A stretch of 64,000 nucleotides of DNA, from UHGV virus genome UHGV-0027388; one strand, 5' to 3'. The position numbers were made by a program, and so were the translations under genes. Positions 5,146 to 32,024 of the stretch are shown piece after piece (positions within the stretch are counted from its first letter, which is position 1; each line of letters opens with the position of its first letter). The stretch comes from a virus. The notes beneath the pieces are model-generated. The model saw only the letters and a list, made by a program, of their open reading frames with translations, did not search any database and was not told where the DNA came from.

Positions 5146-5268
5146 AAATCTCTGCGCTGTTACTTCTTGACGGTCGTACAGCACAGAGATTCGCCAAAGA
5201 GGTTACTCATTGGTAAATCTATTATACCATGCGGTTTGGCCTCTTACAAGTAGAAATGAGGTTTTACT

Positions 5269-5544
5269 ATGACTATCCGTAAAAGCATGAAAGAATTCCA
5301 TAATGACCACTGCGACAACATCTACTGGCTGACGTTCTGCGGCGAGAAAATGTCCGAGCTGATGCGGGACAGCAAGTACGGAGACCGGGCGGCAAAGCCG
5401 GATGACATCGACGATACCGAGATCATGGGAGCGTGGTTCAACTGGGCATTCTCATTTATCGGCGATGAGATTATGAAAGTTGAGGAAAACGTTGATTACC
5501 TGCCGGACGTTCAGATTGAGGAATCTAGCGATATTGCGGAGTAA
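5269..5544 (+). CDS. small acidic protein, family copy A (motif WFNWAFSFIGDE)
   Basis: 91 aa with about 22 Asp/Glu. Paralogous to 7071-7349, 30131-30409 and 63815-64000. Function unknown. Confidence 0.7.
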   Translation: MTIRKSMKEFHNDHCDNIYWLTFCGEKMSELMRDSKYGDRAAKPDDIDDTEIMGAWFNWAFSFIGDEIMKVEENVDYLPDVQIEESSDIAE

Positions 5545-5581
5545 AGTAATAACCCCCTCGATTTCGAGGGGGTTATTACTT
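5545..5581. terminator. bidirectional hairpin terminator between gene A and the 3' end of the tRNA operon
   Basis: agtaataaccccctcg-atttc-gagggggttattact: an 11-bp GC-rich stem flanked by T/A runs. Confidence 0.7.
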
Positions 5582-5656
5582 TGGCAGCGATGGCTGGATT
5601 CAAACCAGCGATGGAGGAGTCAAAGTCCCCTGCCTTAATCACTTGGCTACACCGCT
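5582..5656 (-). tRNA. tRNA-Gln (TTG)
   Basis: The reverse complement folds as a cloverleaf. Acceptor stem AGCGGTG pairs with CATCGCT. Anticodon loop CTTTGAC, T-loop TTTGAAT, encoded CCA. Closely resembles the Firmicute tRNA-Gln pattern. Confidence 0.75.
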
Positions 5657-5846
5657 AAATAGTATTAGCCGCCTCCCTGGATTCGCAGAAGCGGCTAATA
5701 CGTCTCACTAGAGCTGGACTTCTGGTGATCCACCCAGAAACGCTAATTATGCGCATGAATCAGCTGTCCAGCAAAGGCGGGTCATGGTCATTGCACCCAT
5801 GCGCAACCCTTGTACTTCGAGCTGCCCACTAACGCCCCGCATATGA

Positions 5847-5923
5847 TGGTGGACCTTGTAGGTCTCGAACCTACGACCGTGCGGTTATGAGCCGCGTGCT
5901 CTAACCAACTGAGCTAAAGGTCC
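5847..5923 (-). tRNA. tRNA with CAT anticodon (Met or lysidine-type Ile2; the GGACCTTTAGCTCAGTTGGTTAGAGC body favours Ile2)
   Basis: GGACCTTTAGCTCAGTTGGTTAGAGCACGCGGCTCATAACCGCACGGTCGTAGGTTCGAGACCTACAAGGTCCACCA. Confidence 0.8.
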
Positions 5924-6020
5924 GCATTAAACCGAGAGGGCGCATCTTGGTTATCTGGTTTTCTCCCAGACCATCTTTCAGGCGTGCGCCGGTGAGCATT
6001 TATTCCGCTCCTCTCCCGGT

Positions 6021-6094
6021 TGGAGCACCAAGCGGGAATCGAACCCGCGCAATCAGCTTGGAAGGCTGATGTTCTGCCATTAAACTACTGGTGC
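6021..6094 (-). tRNA. tRNA-Gly (TCC)
   Basis: GCACCAGTAGTTTAATGGCAGAACATCAGCCTTCCAAGCTGATTGCGCGGGTTCGATTCCCGCTTGGTGCTCCA. Anticodon loop CTTCCAA. Confidence 0.8.
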
Positions 6095-6201
6095 AAAATG
6101 CCGCCCGAATTGCACGGTCGCCGCCGGAGGTATGTTAAGCGGAGCATTCCATCTAGGCCGAATGCTTATATATGAAAGGAGATGGTTATGTACGCCATCC
6201 G

Positions 6202-6285
6202 TGGTGCCGCTAGTGGGAGTCGAACCCACACGCACAAAGCACAGGAACCTAAATCCTGCACGTCTGCCAATTCCGTCACAGCGGC
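6202..6285 (-). tRNA. tRNA-Leu (TAG), type II with a long variable arm
   Basis: Acceptor GCCGCTG pairs with TAGCGGC. 3-bp D stem. Anticodon loop TTTAGGT. T-arm GTGGGTTCGACTCCCAC. CCA encoded. Confidence 0.8.
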
Positions 6286-6303
6286 AAGCCTGAGTTGAGT
6301 GTA

Positions 6304-6393
6304 TGGCGGCGCAGGTGGGATTTGAACCCACGCACGGTTTCTCCGTCTAGCGGGTTTCAAATCCGCCCCCTTAAACCACTTGGGTACTACGCC
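6304..6393 (-). tRNA. tRNA-Ser (TGA), type II (31:39 A-C mismatch in the anticodon stem)
   Basis: Acceptor GGCGTAG pairs with CTGCGCC. Anticodon loop TTTGAAA. Variable-arm hairpin ACGG-agaaa-CCGT. T-loop TTCAAAT. CCA encoded. Confidence 0.7.
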
Positions 6394-6394
6394 G

Positions 6395-6470
6395 TGGTCG
6401 AAGTGGTGAGACTCGAACTCACGACCTCCTGAACCCAAATCAGGAGCGCTACCAACTGCGCTACACCTCG
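6395..6470 (-). tRNA. tRNA-Pro (TGG)
   Basis: CGAGGTGTAGCGCAGTTGGTAGCGCTCCTGATTTGGGTTCAGGAGGTCGTGAGTTCGAGTCTCACCACTTCGACCA. Only 1 nt separates it from tRNA-Ser. Confidence 0.8.
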
Positions 6471-6486
6471 ATCTATTATATTTCTT

Positions 6487-6563
6487 TGGCGCTATCGGCA
6501 AGGACTTGAACCTGCATCCTCCTGAGTACGAATCAGGCGCTCTGCCATTAGAGCTACGACAGC
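6487..6563 (-). tRNA. tRNA-Thr (CGT), with a bulged T in the T-stem
   Basis: Acceptor GCTGTCG pairs with CGATAGC. Anticodon loop TTCGTAC. T-arm GCAGG-TTCAAGT-CCTtGC carries one extra nucleotide. Confidence 0.7.
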
Positions 6564-6701
6564 ATATATAGCGCCGCCGGAATTGCACCGTGGCTTTCAG
6601 CGTTCGCCGGGGAACTTCCCCAACTGGCCGAAAGAGCCTCCCACTTAGGCGATGAAGGCTTATAAATACATGAAAGGAGAAAGGGCTATCGACCTGCCCT
6701 A

Positions 6702-6777
6702 TGGAGCTGGTGGACGGACTTGAACCGCCGACCATCGACTTACAAAGACGCCGCTCTACCAACTGAGCTACACCAGC
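6702..6777 (-). tRNA. tRNA-like gene, probably tRNA-Thr (TGT), with an imperfect anticodon stem (possible pseudo-tRNA)
   Basis: Acceptor, D arm (GCTCAGTTGGTAGAGC) and T arm (GGCGGTTCAAGTCCGTC) are canonical, with CCA encoded. The anticodon loop is TTTGTAA. Only 3 of 5 anticodon-stem pairs can form (GCGTC/GTCGA). Confidence 0.55.
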
Positions 6778-6854
6778 AGATCGACCGCCCCGAACCGAAA
6801 GAAACAGAAAAATTCGGAGCGGTCAAATAGGATATGTCCCCCATCCCTGATAAA

Positions 6855-6883
6855 ATTATAGCAACAGGTTTGCGTGGTAGTAA
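6855..6883 (-). promoter_or_regulatory. promoter of the tRNA operon (minus strand TTACTA-N17-TATAAT)
   Basis: The reverse complement of 6855-6883 reads TTACTAccacgcaaacctgttgcTATAAT, about 75 nt upstream of the first tRNA. Confidence 0.6.
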
Positions 6884-6999
6884 CCCCTAAAAAAATTTTC
6901 TTGAAAAGGGCTTGATAAGAACGCAGAGCCTGTTAAACTATAGTTGCGCTTGGACGATAGTCTCATGTTTGCCTTCCTCGCAAGTCTTTATTTCTAAAG

Positions 7000-7045
7000 A
7001 AGAAGCAGCACCCGGTGAAAATTCGGGTGCTGCTTCTTTATGCTT
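7000..7045. terminator. bidirectional rho-independent terminator (13-bp stem)
   Basis: gaagcagcacccg-gtgaaaatt-cgggtgctgcttc with T-rich tracts on both sides. Terminates minus-strand family gene B. Confidence 0.75.
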
Positions 7046-7070
7046 TCTAACCGCGTCGATTTCGACACAG

Positions 7071-7349
7071 TTACTTTTTGTATCGCTTCTGCATTTCCTC
7101 CACGGTGTCCACTGTCTCTTCCAGCTGGATGTCAGGAAGGTACTCTGTGTTTTCTCCCATTTTCACAACTTCATCCTGGATGAACTCGAACGCCCACGCA
7201 AAGTAAGTTCCCGCCACCAATGGGTCAATTTCTTGATCTTTGGGGGCATCCCGGAACAGCTCCGCCATCTTCTGAGCGGATTCTGCCGTGTGAATGATGT
7301 TCTCAAAGTGTTCGTTCTGATAGTCTCTCATGCTCTTACGGATAGTCAT
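7071..7349 (-). CDS. small acidic protein, family copy B (motif YFAWAFEFIQDE)
   Basis: ORF 7071..7355. The likely start is the ATG of MTIRKSM..., preceded by AGAAAGGA. Paralog of 5269-5544, with the same MTIRKSM N-terminus. Confidence 0.7.
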   Translation of the reverse strand: MTIRKSMRDYQNEHFENIIHTAESAQKMAELFRDAPKDQEIDPLVAGTYFAWAFEFIQDEVVKMGENTEYLPDIQLEETVDTVEEMQKRYKK

Positions 7350-7472
7350 ATTCAAAATCCTTTCTTGCGTCAGGCAAGAACTAGTGATATAATAAATTTA
7401 TCATTAGGCCTTGCCTTTTGGTGTGTATAAGGCTTCGTCCCGTGATTGCTAGTCCAGGGGGCGAAGTCTTAT

Positions 7473-7649
7473 TTACTTTTCGGTGGACTGTTCAACAAGG
7501 TCAATTCCCTTTCTGACAATATCGCTCTTGGAGAGATTCAGCTTTTCAGCGCACCGTTCAAGTTTCTTGCGGTATTCTTCGTCAAGCCGAACTCTGAGCA
7601 TCGTGTCTTTAGGGCTGTCGCTCTTTGGACGTCCCATGTTTTGCGACAT
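7473..7649 (-). CDS. ribbon-helix-helix protein (58 aa, MSQNMGRPKSDSPKDTMLRVRLDEEYRKKLERCAEKLNLSKSDIVRKGIDLVEQSTEK)
   Basis: Below the ORF-table cutoff. Minus-strand promoter TTGACT-N17-TATATT overlaps direct/palindromic repeats TTGTAGCTACAA. RBS AGAGGTGA. The conflicting + ORF 7446..7898 spans these promoters and is rejected. Confidence 0.55.
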   Translation of the reverse strand: MSQNMGRPKSDSPKDTMLRVRLDEEYRKKLERCAEKLNLSKSDIVRKGIDLVEQSTEK

Positions 7650-7832
7650 CTAATCACCTCTTTCTGTCGCTACAACAAATATATCATTGTAGCTACAACA
7701 AGTCAAGAGTTTTTTTATTTTTCCTTGTCTGTGGCGGAACCGCATGGTATAATGGATTTACCAGTTGCACCGCTTCTGGGGGATAACCGTAAGCTGTTGG
7801 TCGTCAGCCTTTACCAGCTTGCGGTTATTTTC

Positions 7833-8705: not shown

Positions 8706-9081
8706 AAGGCCCGGAAAAGTGGTGCAAACATGGCAAAAACCAAAGCCCAGCAAGCTACACAAAAGATGAAAACGAGAGTCAACCTTGACGGGCTGGCTCT
8801 CGTTTCTTATTAAAGGCAAGATTGATTTTCTGTGATTATTTTTCGGAATCCGTCTTTATCTGCTTCATAGCATCCTGCATCTTAATCTTATACCAGTAAA
8901 CAGGAAGATTTGCGCAAATTTACACGGTAAACAGTAAGGGATTTACACGGTAAACAGGAGCAAGGGGTGAGAACAGGTATTTTCCCCTATTCCGCAACAC
9001 ATTTTTGTCAACCTGTCAACAGAACTGTCAACTTTCACCCGACTCTACAACTTTTTATTGTGGACGCGGTTGTAGCTAGAT

Positions 9082-9351
9082 TTATGGAATATATTTACAG
9101 AATTTCATGCGCCACGTTCTGGTTGTTATTTCCTCTCTGTGCTTGCGCTGCCATTCTTCTGAAACCTGCTTGAAAGTTATTATTTTTGGCTGAATTGCCT
9201 TGTTTAACTTCGTGTAAAGGCGTTCGGGATCGCGGTCATAAACATACCTCCGTTGACCGTTTCCGCCCAGATAAGAGCCTTGATAGCGACCGTCTTTTTG
9301 CAGTGTAAACATCGACGCGAAATCCAAAGTTTTCTCTTGTTCTTTGCCCAT
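9082..9351 (-). pseudogene. N-terminal fragment of a second tyrosine integrase (arm-binding domain only)
   Basis: MGKEQEKTLDFASMFTLQKDGRYQGSYLGGNGQRRYVYDRDPERLYTKLNKAIQPKIITFKQVSEEWQRKH... matches the integrase N-terminal DNA-binding domain pattern. GGAGGT RBS. No catalytic domain follows. Confidence 0.5.
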
Positions 9352-9846
9352 GATGTTACCTCCCCGTAACAAGCGTTTCTGTTTCTTACGGCGTCAGTTT
9401 ATCATGCGCAGTTTGAAAGTCAATGAACCATCCTGCCCAACAGGCCAGACTGTAAAACGGCGTAGAATGCGTTCTGAGCGGTTTTTATCTGCCGTTGATT
9501 AGTTTTGCACCTACGCACCTAAAAATCGCTTTACGGTCGTTCTGTGGCTTCTGATGGCATTTTGGAAGTGTTCCCTGTGTGTGCAGGTGCGTATATGCGT
9601 GTGTGAGCGCGTGTGATGCCCGGTGTGCCGTTTTCAGAGCTTCAACGGGAAATTACATTCCGCAAGTTCAAAACGCCTTCTTAGCCGCTCTGTGACTGTT
9701 AGAGGGCAACTGATTGATTTGCGCCGAGATTGTATTTTTTTCTTTCCTGATTTCGCAGAATTCCGTCCCACCCGCCGTGTACGCGCACGCGCATCAAGTC
9801 TCTGCATATCTTATAAATATATATTATATATATACTAGACTTGTAA

Positions 9847-9995
9847 GTCTTATTTTCTATTTAGACTCTCTATATATGCTAGTCTCTACTCCTAATCCTG
9901 TAGGTCTTATCTTCTATTTAAGCTCTCTATATATGCTAGTCTGTACTCCTAATCCTGATAGTCTTATTTTCTAACGTAAATCTGTACTATCTGTA
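9847..9995. repeat. about 58-bp tandem repeat, 2.5 copies (agtcttattttctatttagactctctatatatgctagtctctactcctaatcctgt)
   Basis: Direct reading. Copies at 9847-9902, 9903-9960 and 9961-9995. Degenerate TTCTACCGT-type motifs continue to about 10200. Confidence 0.8.
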
Positions 9996-10414
9996 GGTTT
10001 GTACTTCTACCGTACTAAACCTGGAAGTCTTTACTTCTAACTAAGTACTCAAAAAAATAAAAAACTGCATCAATAAACTTGCAAGTCAGTATTTCTACCG
10101 TTAATACGCTGATAGTTATAGCTTTTACTCTTACCGACTATGCTTATAACTTTCCTAAACTTAGAGTTCAAGCCGCTACACAGTATTGCCATTTACTACC
10201 ATAAATATTCCTTTGATTTTACAATTTTATGCGTCTACGGCAGATTTGTTACGGAGTTGACACTTTTTGTCAAGGTTGACAAATATTTTCCTACTCGGTA
10301 GTTAATTACTATTATTATAAAATCCGACGATTTTCGCCTCTTGGTGCATGATACGCCTTTGCCGTGCACCAAACAACACCGCAAATCAGTTTACCATCAT
10401 AAGGAGGAACGCAA

Positions 10415-10715
10415 ATGAAAGAGAAGCGAAATAAGTTAGGCCTGACACAAGAGCAGGTCGACAGGGTGTGATCGTGTGCTTGATGCAAAAGAGATCAACG
10501 CCGAAATAGCCCGCCTTGAATACGTCGAGAGCAGCTATCCGAATTACGCCAAGCTGGCCGACCTCTATATCATCCGCGATAAGATGGAGTCATGCGCAAG
10601 ATTGAGCAAATATAATGCAAATCCCCCAGCCGAAAAAGCTGGGGGATTTGCCGTAGCAAAAACGTATCAAAAGGCGAAATTCACGGTACTTAATTCAAAC
10701 AGAAACGAGCCTTAA
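10415..10715 (+). pseudogene. disrupted HTH-domain gene (18-codon XRE-like N-terminus MKEKRNKLGLTQEQVDRV, stop, then a C-terminal ORF in the +1 frame)
   Basis: AAGGAGGAAC RBS. The first frame stops at 10469-10471. ORF 10476..10715 continues in another frame. Confidence 0.35.
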
Positions 10716-10890
10716 TCGTCATCAAAACACACAAAAATGCGTTAGCGCACAATGGATTGCGTGTTCTGTCAGTCTATGATACAATAAAATACATATAAAA
10801 TATACGAATATTTATCACTATAAAACGAAGCAAACAAGCAAAAACAATCATAATCTGCAATCATTAAGTGTAAAAAATAAAATGCGAGAT

Positions 10891-11961
10891 TTATGGCGTA
10901 GCAGAATCGTAGCATCTCTCCAAAATGGAGCACAAATCGTCCCGTTTGGCTTTGTAGAGATGGGAGTAAACACGGAGTGTTACAGTCACATTTTCGTGGC
11001 CTAAACGCTCTGCTATGAGCAGTGGCTGCACCCCCTGGTCTATCAGCATCGACGCGTGAGAATGTCGGAGATCATGCACCCTGATGATCGGCACACCTGC
11101 CTTAACGCAGTTGCGCTTGCAGTGGTTGCGGAGCATAGACGCGCTTGTACCCTCGAATAGCCTACCGCCTGACATTGTGGCGATAAGCGGGGCTAATTCC
11201 TCCTGCAAAAAGTGTGGGATTGATACAACTCTGACGGAGCTTGCAGTTTTAGGCACTCCGATAATTTCTTCTCCGTTCAGCTTTATGTAGGTTTTGGTAA
11301 TGGATATTTTACCGTCGCTCACATCCTCTGGTGCAAGCGCCAGCAACTCGCCCTCACGCATACCCGTCCAAAACAATGTGTCGAAAGCAATCTTCATAAG
11401 CTCGTTTTGCTCACAAGAACGGAATTTGGCATACTCCTGCACGGTCAGAAATTTCATTTCTCGCTTTTTTTCATTTCTCTTTTCGGCGACTGCGTTTGTG
11501 CATGGATTTGACGGCAGTCCATATAACCGGACAGCAAAGTTAAAAATGCTCGATAACCTCGATTTCAACATAGCGGTCGTCGTTTGAGATAGTTTCCCTC
11601 CGGTTATGCGCGATTTCCGGTTTTGCAGATCGCTATACCACTTGCGTACAGCCAGTGGCGTGACGTCTTGCACTGCGGTTTTTCCAAACGCTGGGCGCAA
11701 ACTCTTTTCGACCGCGAATTCAATCGACGAGTATGTCGTCGGCTTCACCCTTGTTTTTGCGTCCTCTAGATATAGGTCAAGCAGCGACGACATGGACATA
11801 GATAGACTTCCATTCATCTTTTGCAAAAATTCACGCTCGTACTGCTGGGCTTCTCGTTTTGTTGGAAATCCCTCTTTTTTCTTTTGTTTTCGCGTCCCAT
11901 CAAATGTAGTATATCTACAGGTCACCTTCCAGCGCCCGTCCGGCATTTTCGATACGCTCAT
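10891..11961 (-). CDS. int: tyrosine site-specific integrase (phage integrase family)
   Basis: 356 aa. N-terminal arm-binding motif MPDGRWKV. C-terminal catalytic residues in HDLRHSHASMLIDQG...LGHENVTVTLRVYSHLY. Confidence 0.9.
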   Translation of the reverse strand: MSVSKMPDGRWKVTCRYTTFDGTRKQKKKEGFPTKREAQQYEREFLQKMNGSLSMSMSSLLDLYLEDAKTRVKPTTYSSIEFAVEKSLRPAFGKTAVQDVTPLAVRKWYSDLQNRKSRITGGKLSQTTTAMLKSRLSSIFNFAVRLYGLPSNPCTNAVAEKRNEKKREMKFLTVQEYAKFRSCEQNELMKIAFDTLFWTGMREGELLALAPEDVSDGKISITKTYIKLNGEEIIGVPKTASSVRVVSIPHFLQEELAPLIATMSGGRLFEGTSASMLRNHCKRNCVKAGVPIIRVHDLRHSHASMLIDQGVQPLLIAERLGHENVTVTLRVYSHLYKAKRDDLCSILERCYDSATP

Positions 11962-11971
11962 GTCCTACACC

Positions 11972-12391
11972 TCAAATATAGTCCTCAAAATATTGGAGCG
12001 TGCTATATTCGCAAATCAACTTATTGCGCGGAACATCAATCCGAGACTTTGCCTTTTTGTATGTCCTGATATATTGCTCCATTTTTTGCGCTACGAGATG
12101 TTCTTTCCCTCTCAAAGCGTCAAACTCGTTCTGCCTGATATGTGGCTGCACATCGGAAATATAGGAGTTCTTGCGGAGCAAAACGGCCTTTGTGAAATCA
12201 ACACCACACCCAGAATCTTGATCTGTCCATAACACATATTTGTGCTTGATGTGCGACCTCAAAGGAACAGCAAATAAATTCCCCTTAATTCGCACGCAAA
12301 GCATAATGTATGGTCTATCTGCTTTCTGCTCAATTTCCGGGCAATCAAGGTGATCTCGGAAGAATGTATCGGTAAGAAAGATAAAATGCAA
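11972..12391 (-). CDS. toxN: type III toxin-antitoxin toxin, ToxN/AbiQ-family endoribonuclease
   Basis: 139 aa. RPYIMLCVRIKGNLFAVPLRSH aligns with the RPY..G....G..Y..PLSS core of ToxN/AbiQ. The C-terminal CEYSTLQYFEDY resembles ToxN C.FS.LEE.Y. TTG start directly after an intrinsic terminator. Confidence 0.75.
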   Translation of the reverse strand: MHFIFLTDTFFRDHLDCPEIEQKADRPYIMLCVRIKGNLFAVPLRSHIKHKYVLWTDQDSGCGVDFTKAVLLRKNSYISDVQPHIRQNEFDALRGKEHLVAQKMEQYIRTYKKAKSRIDVPRNKLICEYSTLQYFEDYI

Positions 12392-12394
12392 AAG

Positions 12395-12430
12395 AAATAC
12401 CCCCTCATAAATGAGGGGGCGGTCTTCTGG
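12395..12430 (-). terminator. rho-independent terminator between antitoxin repeats and toxN (type III TA attenuator)
   Basis: Minus-strand CCCCCTCAT-tta-TGAGGGGG hairpin followed by TATTTCTTTT. Confidence 0.7.
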
Positions 12431-12432
12431 TT

Positions 12433-12535
12433 GAGCTTTCTTTATATTTAGTTCGACGCGCTCTACGTCGAAATCAACTCAGTGAGCTTTCTTTTTTCCG
12501 CGACAATCGCGCTCTACGATTGCATCTTCAAGGTT
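12433..12535 (-). ncRNA. toxI: ToxI-like antitoxin RNA: two about 51-nt tandem repeats
   Basis: Both repeats share GAGCTTTCTTT and CGCGCTCTACG. Each has a hairpin with the identical loop CGCTCTA on different, compensatory stems (ttcgacg/cgtcgaa versus caatcg/cgattg). Confidence 0.6.
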
Positions 12536-12550
12536 TCCCTTGCACCCTCA

Positions 12551-12578
12551 ATTATATTCAATTTTTCATCTAAGTCAA
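12551..12578 (-). promoter_or_regulatory. promoter of the toxI-toxN operon (TTGACT-N16-TATAAT on the minus strand)
   Basis: The reverse complement reads TTGACTtagatgaaaaattgaaTATAAT. Confidence 0.6.
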
Positions 12579-12611
12579 CACGCTACAAAAGATTATTTTA
12601 TACAGCGGCGC

Positions 12612-13211
12612 TCATAACTTATGCACCACCGATGTTGTATAACTCGCCTTACCGTCCATGACGGCCGCACGGCCTTTGCGCAGGCCGTCTCGGAAAGTCT
12701 CCACATCTGGCATGATGCGGTCTGTGTTGACCAGTAGGCCGTTCGCGCTGGCTGCCTCGTACAGGGTGTCAATCAGGGATGCGACCGCCAGACGCATTGT
12801 CATGGGGAGGTGATCTAACATCACAAATTCTTCAGACTGAGCGCCGATGTTGGAGCCGTGTTCGCCAAACACTAAAAAATCGAATTTTCGCACGGCGCGG
12901 TCCGATGCGACATTGCCTATATAGTGTAGCGCTGCACGGCGCAGCTCGTCGATGCTGCTATCCCGCGTGAGCGTGTACACATCCGGGTAAAGATACTCCA
13001 GCACGGAGGTCAGGGCGTCAACGCTGAATAGGTCAAACCACGAGATAAACTCATCGACGCGAGGAGCTGTCTGCCCGGACTCGTACTTGTCCCACGTCCT
13101 CAAATCTACACCGATCATCTCGGCCATTTTATACTTCGGCAGGCCGGTTCGCGCTCTCAATTTTTGTAGCACAAGAGCACATCCGCCTCGTAATTCTTCC
13201 CTCGTTCTCAT
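12612..13211 (-). CDS. XRE-family HTH protein with an uncharacterised C-terminal domain (199 aa)
   Basis: N-terminal HTH LQKLRARTGLPKYKMAEMIGVDLRTWDKYESGQ. No peptidase motif seen. Confidence 0.65.
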   Translation of the reverse strand: MRTREELRGGCALVLQKLRARTGLPKYKMAEMIGVDLRTWDKYESGQTAPRVDEFISWFDLFSVDALTSVLEYLYPDVYTLTRDSSIDELRRAALHYIGNVASDRAVRKFDFLVFGEHGSNIGAQSEEFVMLDHLPMTMRLAVASLIDTLYEAASANGLLVNTDRIMPDVETFRDGLRKGRAAVMDGKASYTTSVVHKL

Positions 13212-13743
13212 AACTTCACTCCTTTTCTGTGTAAAAATTGTGGTAAATTTTGCTTATGTTACCTCGTTTTATCCATTAAAAGGATAAACGATTTCCTGTA
13301 CAATAACGCTCAAAGGGGGGATAGGGGATGAATTATCGTATAAAAATAGCCGAGCACCCTGAATACGCAGACGCCCTTGTCGCAATGTTTTGAACGGACG
13401 ACATTGGCCGCATATCTGAGCAGGATGCCCGACTTTTCTGGCACTACGTTGTGCCGCAATTACAAGACGGTCATTTTAGGGGAGCAAAGAGGTCACTTGA
13501 TTTCCCACGAGTTCCCGCACTCTTGGCAGAGACAAATTTTCCGGTTCGTGATCTTTGTCTTTTCGCCTCCTTTGGACTTTTTCCAAACGAGATTGGACAG
13601 ACCAAGTGCGCATATCGAACATATGTACTAGTATTTAACTATCAGATGAAAGACGGAGGGGAAAGACATGAATGAAAACGAGCGAGAAGAGATTTTGACG
13701 ATGCTGGATACAATCTATGCCAACAAAGCGGCGAAGGAAAAAC

Positions 13744-14103
13744 TTATTGCATATCTTTTAGATCAGAGTACATTTCGCGGATCATGCGCTTCACCCGCTC
13801 TTGCTCGGTTGGAGGAAGCGTATCAATAAAAGCAGCAGTTTCTTCCGCCGCCTGACTATGACCGCCGCCCATTTGGGTGGCGGTTTTTTCGTCTCCAACA
13901 ATGGAGTCAATCGACACAGAAAAATACTCCGCAATCTTGTTCAGTGTCTTTGTGCTTAATCCGAACTTTCTTCCGCTTTTTAAATCGCTCATGATACCAC
14001 GGCTTATTCCGATGTCGGTACACATCCGGGAATCGGTGACACCCTTGCGCACACACAATGCGTGGATTGTTTCGTACAAATTGCCCATATGCAGACACCC
14101 CAT
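13744..14103 (-). CDS. CI-like XRE-family repressor (119 aa)
   Basis: HTH IHALCVRKGVTDSRMCTDIGISRGIMSDLKSGRK. Divergent from a Cro-like gene across a repeat-rich operator region. Confidence 0.7.
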   Translation of the reverse strand: MGCLHMGNLYETIHALCVRKGVTDSRMCTDIGISRGIMSDLKSGRKFGLSTKTLNKIAEYFSVSIDSIVGDEKTATQMGGGHSQAAEETAAFIDTLPPTEQERVKRMIREMYSDLKDMQ

Positions 14104-14270
14104 TTTGGCATTTACTCCAAATGTACTTAGTTGAGTAATATGTACTTGACTATGTACTCAAACAAGTATATAATAACCATTGTAATGACGCAAACAAGTA
14201 CAATATTTGTTATAATAATTTTAGTACACAAATGCGTACTTGTCAACGAAAAAAGTCAGGAGGTGATAGG
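14104..14270. promoter_or_regulatory. immunity operator region with multiple TGTAC/GTACT half-site repeats
   Basis: atgtacttag, atgtacttgac, atgtactcaaacaagta, caagtacaat, tagtacac, gcgtacttgtcaac. -10-like TATAAT and TTGTCA elements are present. Confidence 0.55.
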
Positions 14271-14528
14271 TTGGTAGCCCAGACGAAGTTTGGTTATGTG
14301 GTCAAGGCAAAGCTACTGGAAATTGGAAAAACACAACAGTGGCTGTATGCCGAGGTAAAAGCTCGCACTGGATTGTACCTTGATAGCGGGTATCTGCATA
14401 AAATCCTGACAAACCAGCGCGAGGCGGTTAATGTACGCAATGCAATTATCGACATCCTTGACATCAGCGAAGATGAAATCAGGGAAGATGAAATCAGGGA
14501 AGAGGATGAGAAAGCGGAGGTGAAATAA
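14271..14528 (+). CDS. Cro-like small HTH regulator (85 aa, TTG start)
   Basis: AGGAGGTG RBS 5 nt before a TTG. HTH KLLEIGKTQQWLYAEVKARTGL. Acidic C-terminus encoded by a 15-bp tandem duplication (EDEIREDEIRE). Confidence 0.55.
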   Translation: MVAQTKFGYVVKAKLLEIGKTQQWLYAEVKARTGLYLDSGYLHKILTNQREAVNVRNAIIDILDISEDEIREDEIREEDEKAEVK

Positions 14529-14714
14529 ATGACCAGACAGCTCATCAACGCCAAAGAGGCCGCCGCCATTCTCGGCATCGGCGAACAGTCAGCGCGGGAA
14601 GTCCTGCGCAAGATCAACGCCGAGATGAAGAAAGAGGGGCTGTTTACATTGGACAACCCCGTTAAGGTCCCCCGGAGAAGATTGCTACAGCGGTTCGGGC
14701 TGGAAAAGGAGTGA
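14529..14714 (+). CDS. small HTH DNA-binding protein (excisionase/AlpA-like, 61 aa)
   Basis: INAKEAAAILGIGEQSAREVLRK matches the Xis/MerR-type HTH pattern. Confidence 0.55.
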   Translation: MTRQLINAKEAAAILGIGEQSAREVLRKINAEMKKEGLFTLDNPVKVPRRRLLQRFGLEKE

Positions 14715-14983
14715 TGGCATGGACAACCTGATTACCCAGCACGGTCGCTGACGTCGCAAAACTGTACGGCGTAGCAGACACCAGAGCACTCATAAAGCAC
14801 GTTAAGTTTGTCGGGACCAGATGGAGCCGCAGGGTGTCTAAGGCTTCTCTAGCGCGGCAGATGAGTTCCTATTGACCATTCTCACATTAAAACGACAACG
14901 GAGGAAGGGAAAAATGAAAGAACGAGATATTGATACCGAAATCAAGGAAGTCTGGAAGCAGCTAAGCGACGAAAGAAAGAAAA

Positions 14984-15355
14984 TCAGTCTTTTGTATCTT
15001 CGCTCTCTTCTGCAAGAAACTCCTGAGCAAGCTGTCCGCGAAGATACCGCAGAACAAACTTCTTCCGTTCAGGGGACAATCTGAGCAGGATATAGTCAAT
15101 TTCTTCATCAACATTTAAATCTTTAGAGAATCCGTCGTTCTTCGGAGCGATGGATTCTTTTTTTACGTCATTGTCCAGAAAATACTCAACCGGAATATCA
15201 AGAGCATCTGCGATAGCTTTCAGCGTATTTCCGCGAGGCTTTCCTCCGTTTTGCCAGTTGGTAATATTTCCGCTGCTCATTCCTATCTTAGCCAAAAAAG
15301 CTGTGACAGAGATACCCTTGCACGCGCACGCATACTGCAATTTGCTATAAAACAT
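14984..15355 (-). CDS. XRE-family HTH repressor (123 aa)
   Basis: HTH LAKIGMSSGNITNWQNGGKPRGNTLKAIADAL. Confidence 0.7.
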   Translation of the reverse strand: MFYSKLQYACACKGISVTAFLAKIGMSSGNITNWQNGGKPRGNTLKAIADALDIPVEYFLDNDVKKESIAPKNDGFSKDLNVDEEIDYILLRLSPERKKFVLRYLRGQLAQEFLAEESEDTKD

Positions 15356-15550
15356 AATACTGCCTCCTCATTTTTGTGCAATTCGTAGAATTGCGTTAAA
15401 ATGCGTAATTTGCAGTTGCAATGCGCAGTTTTACGCAGTATAATGCAAATGCAAGGACGCAAAAACGCAATCTACTTTGTTTCCGCAAATTCATTGTAGC
15501 ACAAAAGCGCATTTTCGTCAATGCAAAAAATTGCGTGGAGGTGAGTTGTT
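15356..15550. promoter_or_regulatory. divergent promoter/operator region with TTGCGTAA/TTACGCA and GCAATTC-gta-GAATTGC palindromes
   Basis: tgcaattcgtagaattgcgttaaaatgcgtaatttgcagttgcaatgcgcagttttacgcagtataatgcaaatgcaaggacgcaaaaacgcaat. Confidence 0.6.
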
Positions 15551-15778
15551 TTGAGTTTCTGGGAAAACTTCGTTTTGCTGTGCAAAGAGAACGGAGAGAA
15601 GCCCACAGTAGTTGTTAACAAGTTGGGGTTAAGCAGTGGAAACATTGCACGTTGGAAAAACGGCGGATCAATTTCCCTTGAGAACGGGAAGAAAATTGCC
15701 GAACATTTCAATGTGCAGATGGAGCGACTAACGTCAGATGACGCAAAAGCGCCACCCACCACAAGGCACTTGGAATGA
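15551..15778 (+). CDS. XRE-family HTH regulator (75 aa)
   Basis: HTH NKLGLSSGNIARWKNGGSISLENGKKIAEHF. Paralogous to 14984-15355. Confidence 0.65.
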   Translation: MSFWENFVLLCKENGEKPTVVVNKLGLSSGNIARWKNGGSISLENGKKIAEHFNVQMERLTSDDAKAPPTTRHLE

Positions 15779-15825
15779 GCGCGGAAAGGAGGAATAAGAA
15801 ATGACACGAAGAGATACGCAGACCA

Positions 15826-16041
15826 TCAGCGGTTAATCTCTGGGTTGTCTGTGCGTCCGGTGAGATAGTCTAGGGAAACTTCAAAGTAATCCGCTAGAGA
15901 AAGCAATTTTTCGTATGCAGGGAATTTTCCGTACTCATATCTCTGGTACACGATGGGCGAAGCACCGATGGCTGTATAAACATCCCTTTGAGTCAGTCCA
16001 CGGGCGGTGCGAAGCTCGCGCAGACGTTCAGCGAAGGTCAT
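15826..16041 (-). CDS. XRE-family HTH repressor (71 aa)
   Basis: LRTARGLTQRDVYTAIGASPIVYQRYEYGKF. Confidence 0.7.
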   Translation of the reverse strand: MTFAERLRELRTARGLTQRDVYTAIGASPIVYQRYEYGKFPAYEKLLSLADYFEVSLDYLTGRTDNPEINR

Positions 16042-16150
16042 AATGGGACACCTCCAAATATTTTTACAAAAGGGGTTGTAACTACAAATGTGTAGTGCTA
16101 TAATACAGCTACACTACATTTTTGTAGTGAATCCAGAAAGAGAGGAGCAA
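16042..16150. promoter_or_regulatory. divergent operator region with ACTACA-aatg-TGTAGT and CACTACA-ttttt-TGTAGTG palindromes flanking TATAAT
   Basis: Direct reading. Confidence 0.6.
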
Positions 16151-16357
16151 GTGAATGTGGCATTAAGAGCGGCCCGCGAACAGTCCGGCAAGACACAAGC
16201 GCAGGTCGCTAAAGAAGTGGGAATTGCCGAAATTGCGTACCAAAGATACGAATACGGCACGACAGAACCACGAGTGCGGACGGCAATCCGCATCGCAGAC
16301 GCATTGGGAACAACGGTGGAAGCGTTGTTCAGGGAAGATTATACACGCTCAGAATGA
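16151..16357 (+). CDS. XRE-family HTH regulator (68 aa, GTG start)
   Basis: GAGAGGAGCAA RBS then GTG. AREQSGKTQAQVAKEVGIAEIAYQRYEYGTTEP is paralogous to 15826-16041 (shared YQRYEYG). Confidence 0.6.
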   Translation: MNVALRAAREQSGKTQAQVAKEVGIAEIAYQRYEYGTTEPRVRTAIRIADALGTTVEALFREDYTRSE

Positions 16358-16379
16358 GCGTGGCAAGGAGGAATAAGAA

Positions 16380-16739
16380 ATGACACGAAAAGATGCGCAG
16401 AAATCTCAAATTCTCCAACATCTAAAACGGCATGGAACTATCACGAGCATGGAAGCTATTACACTGTTTGGATGCACCCGCTTGAGCGGACGGATATTCG
16501 ACCTCCGACATGAAGGTTATCTTATCCGAAGCGACAAAACAGAGGGCAAAGCCCGTAATGGTAATGCGTGTCAGTTCACTACTTACGTTTACGAAGGGAG
16601 GATGACGGAGAATGGACATTTGGAGCCTGCTACTTGGAACAGTGATCGGCATCTGGTTCTGGGAGTTTGCGAAACAGCTGGCACGGGTGATTGCGTCGAT
16701 GATCGGAACACACCGGACACGAAAGCTGCGAGAGCGTAA
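16380..16739 (+). CDS. winged-helix DNA-binding protein (phage small regulatory protein family)
   Basis: QILQHLKRHGTITSMEAITLFGCTRLSGRIFDLRHEGYLI matches a common phage wHTH pattern. The ORF tail overlaps the next gene and may be shorter. Confidence 0.5.
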   Translation: MTRKDAQKSQILQHLKRHGTITSMEAITLFGCTRLSGRIFDLRHEGYLIRSDKTEGKARNGNACQFTTYVYEGRMTENGHLEPATWNSDRHLVLGVCETAGTGDCVDDRNTPDTKAARA

Positions 16740-16821
16740 GGAAGAAGCCAGAAAGGCTAAATCCGATAAGGTGAGCAGAAGAGAACTGTTTCTTCACAAT
16801 GAACGGGAGATTACCCGCTGA
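16612..16821 (+). CDS. small membrane protein (69 aa)
   Basis: GGGAGG RBS. N-terminal TM segment LLLGTVIGIWFWEF, basic C-terminus. Confidence 0.35.
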   Translation: MDIWSLLLGTVIGIWFWEFAKQLARVIASMIGTHRTRKLRERKEEARKAKSDKVSRRELFLHNEREITR

Positions 16822-16901
16822 TTGAAGAGCAAGGGCATTAGTCACAGGTGGAGGCATGGACGAAAAAATTGCCATGAAAGCGGCGGTAGTGGCCGCCTGG
16901 A

Positions 16902-17315
16902 ATGGCAGAAAGGAAGTTTGAAGGTATGGATCATGAGAAAATGACCACCAGCATTCTGGATATGTGCATGGGAGCCATCAAAGAGCGGGTGGACTACGAC
17001 GCCGCCCGGGTGGTGGAGAACATCCTTGACCCGAATACGGAGCCGAAGGCAAAGCGCAAGATTACGCTGACGATCGAATTTATCCCCAGCAGCGACCGCA
17101 GCCATATCACGGTGCATACGGGCAGTAAGGCAGCTCTGGCACCCACCGCGCCGGTGGAGACCAGCCTGGGCATGATGAGCGATGCCAACGGTGAGATGCA
17201 GTTGGTGGAGCTGCTGCCACAGGTGGCCGGTCAGATGGACTTTGATGGCGAGCAGACGCCAGAGCCGAAGGTTCTGAAACTGGCCGCTCTGGCAGAGCAA
17301 CGGAAAACGATGTGA
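16902..17315 (+). CDS. hypothetical phage protein (137 aa)
   Basis: ORF-table entry within the early gene series. Confidence 0.5.
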   Translation: MAERKFEGMDHEKMTTSILDMCMGAIKERVDYDAARVVENILDPNTEPKAKRKITLTIEFIPSSDRSHITVHTGSKAALAPTAPVETSLGMMSDANGEMQLVELLPQVAGQMDFDGEQTPEPKVLKLAALAEQRKTM

Positions 17316-18055
17316 TGGAGGGAACAATCATGTTGAAGGAAGCAATCGAGAAAATCGTGGAATTGTCTGGTCCTAAGACGATTACAGATCAGTACGGTCA
17401 GGTCTGGTCCGATCGTCCAATGAAGGTCGTGGAGCGCGAAAGACAGCGCCCGGATAAGCTGGCAGTGAGCAGCTTGGATTCCATTGCCCGTCTTGTCCGT
17501 AAAGAGGCGGTCGAGAATTTTGATGAAGGAGTCCCGATTTACGTTCATGTGACCGGTTACAAAACCGTGCGCGTGTTCACCGGTTATCTGGACGACTATT
17601 CCAGAGATGTGCTCTATGAGGCAACTGCCGATGTGCCGGATTTTCGAGGCGGCTATCGTGAGCGCGAGACGGCACTGATTGAGTTGCGTAGCTTGTTCCT
17701 GCCCGGTGACGGCGTTGAATATCTGCTGGATCTACTCAGCCGGATGAGCGATGAGAGCAAGGTTATCAGCGTCGACAACGGTGTGACACAGGGCGTGGAG
17801 GTTGCAAAGGGCATTTCGCTCAAGTCGACGCAGGCTATCCGCCCCAGAGTGGCGTTGCAGCCCTTCCGCACGTTTCTGGAGGTGACTCAACCCGCTAGTG
17901 AATTTCTACTCCGGGTGTCCGAAAATGGGAACATCGGCCTGTTTGAGGCGGACGGAGGTGTCTGGAAGCTGGAGGCCAAAAATAATATCGCGGCCTACCT
18001 CCGCGAGGCGCTGGCTGATGAGATCAAAAGCGAAAAGGTGGTGGTCATGGTATGA
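17312..18055 (+). CDS. hypothetical phage protein (247 aa)
   Basis: ORF-table entry. Its start overlaps the previous stop (ATGA). Confidence 0.55.
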   Translation: MMEGTIMLKEAIEKIVELSGPKTITDQYGQVWSDRPMKVVERERQRPDKLAVSSLDSIARLVRKEAVENFDEGVPIYVHVTGYKTVRVFTGYLDDYSRDVLYEATADVPDFRGGYRERETALIELRSLFLPGDGVEYLLDLLSRMSDESKVISVDNGVTQGVEVAKGISLKSTQAIRPRVALQPFRTFLEVTQPASEFLLRVSENGNIGLFEADGGVWKLEAKNNIAAYLREALADEIKSEKVVVMV

Positions 18056-18117
18056 TCGTCTATCCGGCCGGGCCGATCACCGATGTGGCGGCGCAGAGAT
18101 GAAGGGGGTAAGGTCAA

Positions 18118-18861
18118 GTGGCTGACTGCATTGACGCGATGGAGGCCACAGTAGCCGGACTCCACGCGGTTGAGCGCTTATGCACCGCGAATGCAGTCAG
18201 TAGGCAATATCCGGTCGGCTACAAGACGCGGCGCAAGGTTTTCAAAGACAGGGAAAGCTGGCTGGAAGGCCGTGAGAACGGAATCGGTGCCAGCGAAGCA
18301 AGCGCAATTCTAGGGTTCAGTCCGTGGCTGAGTTCCATCGAACTATGGAAGCGCAAGGCCGGTCTTGTCACTCCGAAAGAGATTGTTGGTAACGCTGCAA
18401 TCGACCGGGGGAAACGCATGGAGGGCGCACTCAGAAACCTGTTTGCCACCCAGCACCCGGAATACCGTGTAGATTACCGTGAGTTCGACATTCTCTATCA
18501 GGCTAACCGCCCGTGGCTGACCGCTACACTGGACGGAGAGTTGCACGACGAAAACGACCGCTTCGGCGTTCTTGAAATCAAGACTGCGCTATGCTCGAAG
18601 CGAACTGACTGGGAAAAATGGAAAGACCAGGTTCCAGACTACTACGCCGTGCAGTGCTTCCATCAGATGTTAGCCACAGGCGCTGAGTTCGTAAAACTCT
18701 ATGCGTGGCTGTGCAACATTGAGGGTGACGCTTCCTTGAGGACGTACACTTTCGAGCGCACAGATCACAAAGAGGATTTGGAATACCTGCTGGAACGCGA
18801 AACAGAGTTCTGGGGATATGTCGAAAAACGCATCATGCCGCCCATGATTATTACGTTCTGA
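18118..18861 (+). CDS. YqaJ-like viral recombinase exonuclease (lambda Exo-like)
   Basis: GIGASEASAILGFSPWLSSIELWKRKAG matches the YqaJ domain signature. Confidence 0.8.
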   Translation: MADCIDAMEATVAGLHAVERLCTANAVSRQYPVGYKTRRKVFKDRESWLEGRENGIGASEASAILGFSPWLSSIELWKRKAGLVTPKEIVGNAAIDRGKRMEGALRNLFATQHPEYRVDYREFDILYQANRPWLTATLDGELHDENDRFGVLEIKTALCSKRTDWEKWKDQVPDYYAVQCFHQMLATGAEFVKLYAWLCNIEGDASLRTYTFERTDHKEDLEYLLERETEFWGYVEKRIMPPMIITF

Positions 18862-30917: not shown

Positions 30918-32024
30918 ATGAAGTACAGCGAGTTTGACGAGGACGAACTGGACGAACTGGATGAAGAATTCGACGATGATCCGGATGAAACGGAAGATGC
31001 GGAAGAAGCCGTTGGTGAATCCAAGGGCACACGGGATTGGTCTGAGCGCGGGATGGCGGAAAAGGCCGTATTTGACCAGTTCGAGGCGGTCTTTGGAAAG
31101 AATCTTGCTGTGTTTTACTGCTGCGTCCGGTTTGACATTCCCTTTGAGACGAACTGCGTTCCTAAGAAACCAGTAGATAACGCATGGGCGCTCTATAAGC
31201 GCCGTCTGCGCAAGAGAAAAGAATATCTCGGTGAGAATTTTGGTGGAAAAGGCTTTCTTGATGGAATGGCCGACATCACCAAAATTTTTGGTGCAGACCT
31301 TACCCTAAAGGACTTCTCACGGGCAGTTGACGCGGAGGTTGCCGCCCGTGTGCGCCGCAATGGCACTAATAAGCAGAGGGCGGATTGGGGCACAAACGGC
31401 ACCAAGAATCCGTACACGAACTACGACTACCAAGAACTGGACAGAACCTACGCTATTTTCTGCTCCCGTAAAAAGGGCGTTGGTTTGGATGAACAGCAGG
31501 AATATACTCTGCGTGAGTGCGCAAAGATGGACTTGGCAATGCAGAAAGCAATGCAAGCCGGAGACGTTCAGACCGCCGCAAAGTATCACGCTATGATTCA
31601 AAAGAGCCTTGAATCTGAAAGTATGCGCAAGAAGGATGAAAAACCAGTTGATGATTTGAGAATCGACGGCATCACAGATGCGCTTGAAAAGAAGTATGGA
31701 ATTGATCCTAACAAGATGCTCTCTAAAGAAGCGGTTCTGAAAGTGATCTATGAATGGATGCGCAGTAAGAAATATCCCGAAACGCTGGACTGCGCCCATA
31801 AAATCACACTGAGCATTATCAATGCAACGCGAATCAACAACGATGAACCACCGCTGCTTGACCTGCCAGAAGAACTTGAGTTCACCGACGATTACGGAGA
31901 GCTGGCAAAAGAGCCGAATGAAGCGGAACAAGCGGCATATGAGTATCTTGGATTGATCCGAGGGAATGGGAAGGCAAACCCACCCACGGAAGAAAACGAC
32001 AAGGACGAGATAGACGATGGCTAA
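30918..32024 (+). CDS. acidic phage protein, possible terminase small subunit or packaging accessory (368 aa)
   Basis: Sits immediately upstream of, and overlapping, the terminase large subunit. N-terminal poly-acidic tract. Assigned by position only. Confidence 0.35.
   Translation: MKYSEFDEDELDELDEEFDDDPDETEDAEEAVGESKGTRDWSERGMAEKAVFDQFEAVFGKNLAVFYCCVRFDIPFETNCVPKKPVDNAWALYKRRLRKRKEYLGENFGGKGFLDGMADITKIFGADLTLKDFSRAVDAEVAARVRRNGTNKQRADWGTNGTKNPYTNYDYQELDRTYAIFCSRKKGVGLDEQQEYTLRECAKMDLAMQKAMQAGDVQTAAKYHAMIQKSLESESMRKKDEKPVDDLRIDGITDALEKKYGIDPNKMLSKEAVLKVIYEWMRSKKYPETLDCAHKITLSIINATRINNDEPPLLDLPEELEFTDDYGELAKEPNEAEQAAYEYLGLIRGNGKANPPTEENDKDEIDDG

Follow-up and report, generated by a model that had tools for sequence, protein, structure and literature searches.

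Here we report the organisation and probable origin of a regulatory locus in UHGV virus genome UHGV-0027388, an uncultured temperate phage of the human gut. The stretch of DNA analysed, referred to as the window, comprises 64,000 nucleotides (nt) and carries three divergent repressor/anti-repressor gene pairs in series, B/C, E/F and G/H, which are mutually unrelated modules gathered by mosaic recombination. The third pair is a self-contained heterologous cassette of 0.58 kb that was joined between a cro-like gene and an HTH_39 gene; its joining, which is established up to the mechanism, duplicated 50 nt of the gene junction and left a stub. The cassette is most likely an accessory second-tier gate of the CI/Cro-like kind or an extra immunity specificity. 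To this explanation as a whole, covering origin, mechanism and function of the stacked switches, we assign a probability of roughly 0.7; its evolutionary part is very probably correct, and its functional part would at present be an even bet.

Organisation of the locus

The genes of the locus are arranged from left to right in the order B, C, D, E, F, an 11-codon stub, G, H and I (Table 1). Membership in the XRE/HTH_3 superfamily of helix-turn-helix (HTH) proteins was assessed with the Pfam gathering scores, which were exceeded by B and E for HTH_26 (33.3 and 29.3 bits; cut-off 22 bits) and by G and H for HTH_3 (42 and 56.6 bits; cut-off 23 bits). F was marginally under the HTH_3 cut-off with 22.8 bits, and C had no Pfam HTH match and was recognised by PHROG 1468 only. 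For H, the start at 16157 (66 amino acids, aa), which was chosen by the gene callers, is likelier than the GTG at 16151 (68 aa).

An earlier note on this DNA had described three consecutive divergent regulator pairs with distinct operators, and this was confirmed by gene orientation, by the HTH profile matches and by motif enrichment in each intergenic region. The motif TGTACT occurs five times between B and C (0.08 expected), ATTGCGT three times between E and F (0.06 expected) and ACTACA/TGTAGT four times between G and H (0.04 expected). In the promoter scan, both genes are faced by promoter-like sites in every intergenic region except on the side of G, where none passes. The sites between B and C are TTGACT-17-TATAAT (+, 14146-14174) and TTGACA-17-TAAAAT (-, 14246-14218), and those between E and F are TTGCAA-17-TATAAT (+, 15416-15444) and TTGACG-17-TACAAT (-, 15521-15493). 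At the sequence level the layout is that of CI/Cro-type switches, with divergent HTH genes, repeated operators and promoter-like sites in the intergenic regions. Profile searches found no Peptidase_S24 or ImmA domain, and hence no CI-type induction domain, in A, B, E or G. PADLOC returned generic HTH matches for the regulators with no assignment to a defence system, and an Rfam search over 9000-17500 was empty in the switch region, its sole matches being the 6A RNA repeats beside the toxin gene described below.

Table 1. Genes and other features of the regulatory locus and its left flank, with positions in the window.
Feature	Position	Strand	Description
Tyrosine integrase	10891-11961	-	PHROG 1 integrase 3.2e-73; left end of the integrase-B/C block
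A	12612-13211	-	199 aa; weak N-terminal XRE HTH (HTH_31 1.1e-4, below cut-off); uncharacterised C-terminal domain; PHROG 2328 repressor 4.8e-6
B	13744-14103	-	119 aa, repressor-like; Pfam HTH_26 5.8e-8; leftward gene of pair 1
B/C intergenic region	14104-14270		Five TGTACT half-sites; divergent promoter-like sites
C	14271-14528	+	85 aa, cro-like; PHROG 1468 'transcriptional repressor' 8.9e-8; rightward gene of pair 1
D	14529-14714	+	61 aa, excisionase-like HTH; weak HTH_17/HTH_28; ICEBs1 excisionase model 22 bits, below cut-off
X2 remnant	14741-14872	+	C-terminal 44 aa (residues 29-72, 98% identity, tblastn) of a 72-aa gene that is intact in L001/L002
E (allele E1)	14984-15355	-	123 aa, CI-like XRE with C-terminal extension; HTH_26 1e-6, HTH_3 5.6e-5; leftward gene of pair 2
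E/F intergenic region	15356-15550		Repeated ATTGCGT/AATGCAA motifs; divergent promoter-like sites
F (allele F1)	15551-15778	+	75 aa, cro-like XRE; HTH_3 22.8 bits; rightward gene of pair 2
J, left copy	15773-15822	+	Stop region of F, ribosome-binding site, ATG and codons 1-7 of the HTH_39 gene
Stub	15801-15836	+	MTRRDTQTISG*, 11 codons; severed 5' end of the HTH_39 gene
G	15826-16041	-	71 aa, HTH-only XRE; HTH_3 9.6e-11; leftward gene of the inserted cassette
Predicted P_H and operators	16076-16129	+	Promoter scan, inverted repeat, motif enrichment
H	16157-16357	+	66 aa, cro-like XRE; HTH_3 2.6e-15; rightward gene of the cassette
J, right copy	16352-16401	+	Functional junction: H stop, ribosome-binding site, start of the HTH_39 gene
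I	16380-16739	+	Winged-helix HTH_39, PF14090 3.3e-16; first gene of the early operon

Two minor observations concern individual genes of the locus. Three tandem 15-nt units at the 3' end of C (14459-14503) encode (S/R)EDEI repeats; C has 80 aa in relatives and 85 aa in the window, so the number of these repeats probably varies. The 3' third of I is overlapped in another frame by a 69-aa open reading frame (ORF; 16612-16821) with a hydrophobic N-terminal stretch. When the window was compared by eye with the related contigs L001 and L002, the changes were mostly conservative in this ORF, and the tail of I varied after residue ~75, a pattern which suggests that the functional part of I is essentially the ~70-aa HTH_39 domain.

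Origin of the G/H cassette

The two copies of the direct repeat J are identical at 46 of 50 positions and are spaced by 579 nt. A degenerate 50-mer of J matched exactly these two sites in the 64 kb and nothing in 100 dinucleotide shuffles. In each copy, the final codon and stop codon of the preceding cro-like gene are joined by a 16-nt spacer to a ribosome-binding site (RBS), which is followed by the ATG and codons 1-7 of I. The stub repeats the RBS and first seven codons of the gene at 16380 and shares 11 nt with the 3' end of G. The near-identity of the repeats and the origin of the stub from the RBS and first codons of gene 16380 had both been recognised in the earlier note, and both held on alignment; of its two repeat positions, the first was right and the second (16343-16395) was about 9 nt off. 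A leftward promoter-like site, TTGCCA-17-TATAAT (11/12; 16338-16366, -), lies within the 3' end of H and the right copy of J and is antisense to this gene. It accompanies every H that ends in ...REDYTRSE, is not a feature of the whole cassette family and may be a chance match.

The relatives of the phage are human-gut metagenome and IMG/VR contigs, whose architectures were determined by a tblastn map and blastn breakpoints. With 13400-17000 as query, blastn found no match among 50,697 deposited phage genomes, so that a cultured relative is lacking, and a scan of GTDB genomes for the junction DNA pattern gave one chance match only (Neiella marina, L008). The window and 24 contigs with an identical G have A, B/C and D on the left, followed by E1/F1, the stub and G1/H1, and then I. 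L004-L007 and L010 have the same genes on the left, together with E2/F2 and no cassette, and the stop of F2 lies 3 nt before the ATG of I; this empty-site allele of I is carried by 23 contigs. L002 has X1 and X2 on the left, followed by E2/F2, the stub, G1/H1 and I, and L009, which is not covered on the left, has F1, G1/H1 and I. In L001, L003, L011 and L012, X1, X2 and E1/F1 are followed by the stub and two cassettes, G2/H2 and G3/H3, before I; the two cassettes of these loci lie head to tail, with the stop of H2 6 nt from the stop of G3. A comparison of one versus two modules among relatives, which the earlier note had proposed, thus found 0, 1 or 2 G/H cassettes, and the cassettes, in number as well as type, assort independently of the left block and of the E/F allele, which are likewise independent of each other. 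Since 24 contigs of independent samples share the identical G and the three-pair gene order, the three-pair genome is a circulating genotype.

Alignment of the filled site with the empty sites of L004 and L010 places the breakpoint directly after ...CGCAGA at 15822, which corresponds to codon 7/8 of I and leaves 3 nt to the stop of G. The microhomology AATCTC is shared in the alignment, but lies 12 nt from the actual join and was not accepted as the crossover point. As the stub shows, an illegitimate join did occur once. That recombination produced the arrangement, as the earlier note had held, is borne out by the repeat, the stub, and the empty and filled sites of the relatives. The G/H cassette is all that the repeats bracket, and what they represent is a duplicated gene junction, not the two ends of a module that was duplicated.

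The earlier note had instead regarded E/F and G/H as tandem duplicates of one switch that have since diverged, with the 50-nt repeats as the ends of the unit. The two modules lie side by side, both have the order leftward HTH gene, operators and rightward HTH gene, and the rightward gene of each is followed by the direct repeat. In an all-against-all blastp comparison, the two proteins within a pair were paralogous, as had been stated (E and F 33%, 1e-10; G and H 36%, 2e-8), whereas E/F and G/H matched each other with E values of at least 0.01, which is no better than any two XRE proteins and reflects only the generic fold. A DNA repeat search over 13.4-17.0 kb recovered the 50-nt junction as the only long repeat and no other similarity between E/F and G/H, so that homology does not extend along both supposed copies; the repeat is 92% identical, while the bodies that it should delimit cannot be aligned. 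Moreover, the modules are exchanged independently, either E/F allele being combined with 0, 1 or 2 G/H cassettes in relatives. A duplication is therefore very improbable, and the joining of a heterologous cassette is the reading adopted here.

As homology arms, the repeats could allow the cassette to move between phages or to be lost again. The phage encodes a YqaJ exonuclease and RecT, which may mediate such movement via the 50-nt repeats. Overall, the locus is a case of ordinary phage mosaicism with an unusually clear scar; beyond this, it points to stackable mini-switches of gut phages as a family that may have received too little attention.

The cassette and its family

The cassette consists of two small HTH-only paralogues that flank a strong predicted promoter, P_H, with two 18-bp palindromic operators. 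The -35 element of P_H is TTGTAA (16076-16081) and its extended -10 element is TGcTATAAT (16096-16104); operator O1 (16080-16097) lies within the spacer, and O2 (16112-16129) just downstream of the -10 element. On the plus strand between F and I, no terminator-like site was predicted. The G + C content of the cassette is 0.486, compared with 0.485 for the genome. A toxin-antitoxin function of G/H was rejected, as both proteins are HTH proteins, the genes are divergent and there is no toxin partner. In comparison with L002 and L009, the window shows a CC->TA change at 16076-16086 in the -35 element and left arm of O1 (TTGCCACTACA -> TTGTAACTACA). With this change the operator, otherwise the symmetric CACTACA-N4-TGTAGTG, loses its outer C; it may represent a variant operator or promoter.

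G/H-type pairs are a widespread family among gut phages. When IMG/VR was searched with an alignment of G1-G3, 79 loci with a G-like gene were obtained, in most of which an H-like gene is divergent and immediately upstream of it. Counted by a simple definition of a pair, 20 loci have no XRE pair within +/-3 kb, 29 have one, 14 have two and 16 have three. All 13 cassettes that were inspected share one layout: a near-consensus TTGACA -35 element, O1 in the 17-nt spacer, an extended -10 element, O2 ~8 nt further on and, downstream of O2, a conserved AAATCCAGAAAGAGAGGAG ribosome-binding region followed by the start of H. Across the cassettes, the operators and the helix 2-3 residues of G as well as H change together: operators of the type CCTAAT...ATTAGG go with S/T-x-x-M-YQFYEYG in G and S-x-A-Q-YQNIEY in H, and those of the type CACTACC.AATGGTAGTG with MS-x-LGYQRYEYG in G and I/V-S/T-x-x-C/T-YQRYE in H. 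The gene ends are conserved in protein and partly in DNA, namely the C-terminus of G (LDYLTGRTDNPEIN; in the window ...LDYLTGRTDNPEINR, which is conserved in the family) and the N-terminus and C-terminus (ALGTTVE.LF) of H. The specificity cores thus lie between stretches of homology, as in the classical swaps of imm regions.

The order of a large CI/Cro pair, a G/H pair and early genes recurs in unrelated phages. In L023, an S24-type CI is followed by a cro-like gene, G/H and a gene that is Rha-like by eye, and in the L038 family a 137-aa CI-like gene, a cro-like gene and an HTH protein precede G/H. Three to four small divergent XRE pairs in series, ~100-180 nt apart, were found on the IMG/VR contigs L051 (1380-4679), L056 (6-1423) and L052 (1778-3213), so that arrays can exceed the two cassettes of L001. 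No description of tandem or stacked XRE or G/H-type cassettes was found in the literature, which, given the incomplete coverage, is weak evidence of novelty.

Function and comparison with known systems

E/F, as the E1 or E2 allele, is the only pair that is present in every relative covering that position, and it was therefore taken as the core CI/Cro-type switch of the lineage. This core switch exists as two heteroimmune-looking alleles, E1/F1 and E2/F2. A 44-nt stretch with the start codon, RBS and leader of E (...TTTTGTGCAAT.CGTAGAA...; window 15347-15390, L004 5597-5640) is 84-86% conserved between these otherwise unrelated modules; it could be a regulatory element common to both or one more linker for recombination.

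The G/H cassette would act as a subordinate second-tier switch below E/F. In a lysogen, G would bind O1 and O2 and shut P_H, adding a second lock on the early operon, and it may also repress incoming phages that use the same operators, which would amount to immunity. Since O1 falls within the P_H spacer and O2 covers the first part of the H transcript, occupancy should shut P_H. The only candidates for a G promoter, which are weak and not convincing as a conserved promoter, have a -10 element that overlaps that of P_H on the other strand and a -35 element in O2, so that transcription from P_G and P_H would be mutually exclusive. With no plus-strand terminator predicted from F to I, transcripts from the F promoter (P_F) should read through the stub, antisense G, H and I. 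Once E/F has flipped, this read-through would produce H regardless of G and P_H and would collide with transcription of G, which H would then silence. The suggestion of the earlier note, several immunity specificities or a layered lysis-lysogeny decision, is likewise plausible.

Several points weigh against this account. Its functional part is an inference from sequence. A promoter for G is predicted only weakly, and since G has neither a sensor nor a cleavage domain, the release of its repression is hypothetical. The cassette is dispensable, being missing in sister phages, and could be selectively neutral; G of the window differs from that of L002/L009 by four synonymous changes and one non-synonymous change, which are too few to show selection. 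The 30 loci with two or three pairs are phylogenetically non-independent, many coming from one phage family. Finally, the direction of the event is not fully polarisable, as an empty site could mean either that the insertion never occurred or that the cassette was deleted between the repeats.

If the cassette were a neutral hitch-hiker, that is, a piece of another phage's primary switch captured illegitimately and without a role in decision or immunity, its absence from otherwise near-identical sister phages would be expected, and so would a G + C content that equals the genome average and gives no moron-like signal. G/H is apparently the sole switch in L014, L015 and L067, so that the cassette does look like a captured primary switch. 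We nevertheless consider a neutral passenger unlikely, because intact ORFs and almost unvarying operators and promoter are seen on at least 24 contigs and in three genomic backgrounds, because the location behind a larger CI/Cro pair is found again in phage families that are unrelated, and because two-cassette arrays have been kept intact.

The immI region of phage P22 (mnt / arc-ant) is a second immunity region beside immC, with two small paralogous divergent repressors and overlapping promoter/operator sites; Mnt and Arc have the ribbon-helix-helix fold. G/H is likewise a second region of two small paralogous divergent repressors in addition to a main CI/Cro-type switch, and it might control I, which would be an anti-repressor or early activator, rather than gate the operon in general. 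Distantly related small divergent pairs directly precede an annotated anti-repressor gene in Clostridioides difficile phage phiMMP02 and Bacillus phage LY4, and the gene after H in L023 and L030 appears to be of the Rha-family/anti-repressor type, as judged from its translation by eye only, with no family search made. That an XRE repressor controls anti-repressor promoters has been demonstrated experimentally in the C. difficile phage phiCDKH01 (PMC11172241). G and H, however, are HTH proteins and not ribbon-helix-helix proteins, and the cassette, which adjoins the main switch, is not common to all sister phages. An HTH_39 gene that lacks an anti-repressor domain comes after H. Its presence does not depend on the cassette: where relatives have no cassette, it lies directly behind the cro-like gene, and it is thus not cassette cargo. 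Moreover, I has no similarity to known anti-repressor families, with PF14090 as its sole match and no result from PADLOC or NCBIfam. Control of I in the manner of immI is therefore rather improbable, and a general second-tier gate or extra immunity specificity remains the preferred function.

The cassette shares features with other known systems. As in CI/Cro of phage lambda, the HTH genes are divergent, repeated dyad operators in the intergenic region overlap the promoters, and specificity residues and operators vary together between 'heteroimmune' alleles. Unlike lambda, both G and H are HTH-only proteins of ~70 aa with neither an oligomerisation nor an S24 cleavage domain at the C-terminus, the operators number only two and flank the -10 element of a single strong predicted promoter, and the pair sits downstream of another complete switch instead of being the sole switch of the phage. 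Morons are independent units of transcription that have been added between two genes lying side by side in related phages (PMC3594210). The G/H cassette, too, is extra DNA that separates two genes which adjoin in relatives (the empty sites of L004-L007 and L010); it brings predicted promoter(s) of its own and has spread among phage backgrounds. It differs in its non-deviant G + C content, in having no predicted terminator, in its cargo, which is regulatory and not a host-benefit gene, and in the flanking duplication of the 50-nt junction. The best NCBIfam resemblance of G and H is to RstR of phage CTXphi, another small XRE repressor, although their scores of 54.0 and 52.6 bits stay below the cut-off of 80 bits for family NF041951. 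In the RstR/ig-2 system, repressor and operator region are likewise swapped as a unit between conserved flanks, but CTXphi is filamentous, whereas the phage studied here is a tailed double-stranded DNA phage, and RstR has no paired divergent paralogue. The CI/MOR switch of TP901-1 resembles G/H in that a ~70-aa HTH protein is divergent from a repressor within a switch of less than 1 kb in a Firmicutes phage. The CI protein of TP901-1 has 180 aa and forms a CI-MOR complex (PMC7250872), and nothing comparable is known for G/H.

Taken further, G/H cassettes may tentatively be seen as portable, stackable mini-switches of human-gut Firmicutes phages, a doubtful extension of the account given above. 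Each cassette would have its own operator/helix specificity; arrays of 0 to 3 or more would lie just downstream of the primary CI/Cro switch and be reshuffled by recombination at gene ends or junction repeats, forming a combinatorial immunity 'barcode' that excludes competitors with the same cassette or leads to co-induction with them. If the cassettes are active, they would provide a natural system in which several bistable switches are combined in series and in which gut phages exchange immunity specificities in units of less than 1 kb, and the sister genomes with 0, 1 and 2 cassettes would serve as ready-made isogenic comparisons. If they are inactive, the locus is still an unusually clean mosaic join with empty site, filled site and junction duplication all preserved. 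In either case, current concepts of phage regulation are unchanged.

Neighbouring features

The first pair, B/C, came with a 4.3-kb block containing an integrase, a TenpIN toxin and an Xis-like gene, which cut into two older genes. The block (~10469-14740; integrase, TenpIN toxin, A, B/C and D) is an insertion relative to relatives of the L001/L002 type, as determined by blastn against L001, L002 and L004, and B is not present in the tblastn map of the L001/L002-type relatives. The right edge of the insertion, located by blastn breakpoints, is the X2 remnant. On the left, the block adjoins the N-terminal ~88 codons of an L001-type integrase (9108-9372), from which about 1.2 kb has been deleted. 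The remnants at 9108-9372 and 14741-14872 thus bracket the region where the block was acquired.

Beside the integrase (11972-12527 region, -), a 139-aa ORF encodes a toxin of the TenpIN family of type III toxin-antitoxin systems (NCBIfam NF047358, 139.9 bits; cut-off 90), which PADLOC did not detect. Directly upstream of it on the same strand lie two tandem 51-nt 6A RNA motifs (RF02925; 12426-12476 and 12477-12527) with scores of 56.7 and 42.6 bits (Rfam gathering score 41.2), which are probably the repeated RNA antitoxin of the toxin.

Further to the left, eight tRNA genes (5582-6777, -) are located in a 2.1-kb segment (within 5211-7763) that is inverted in L001 and L012 relative to the window. 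The segment is flanked by inverted repeats at 5262-5322/7296-7356 (61 nt, 79%) and 5211-5257/7717-7763 (47 nt, 83%) and is possibly invertible. An interpretation of the tRNA array as host flank is probably wrong, as contigs of about 68.9 kb recur in several samples and the array is part of IMG/VR genomes; the tRNAs are probably phage-borne.

Elsewhere in the window, a 621-aa protein (32017-33882) has its closest match in an unannotated human faecal 'Bacteriophage sp.' (61%), followed by SPbeta-like and Bacillus/Lactococcus phages (~24%); the matches that bear names are large terminase subunit or YonF, which are names only, no family search having been made. Downstream of I, a 1.36-kb insertion (16841-18202) that is missing in all relatives examined contains two ORFs without a Pfam match (16902-17315 and 17312-18055) and adds an N-terminal extension of ~29 codons to the YqaJ gene.

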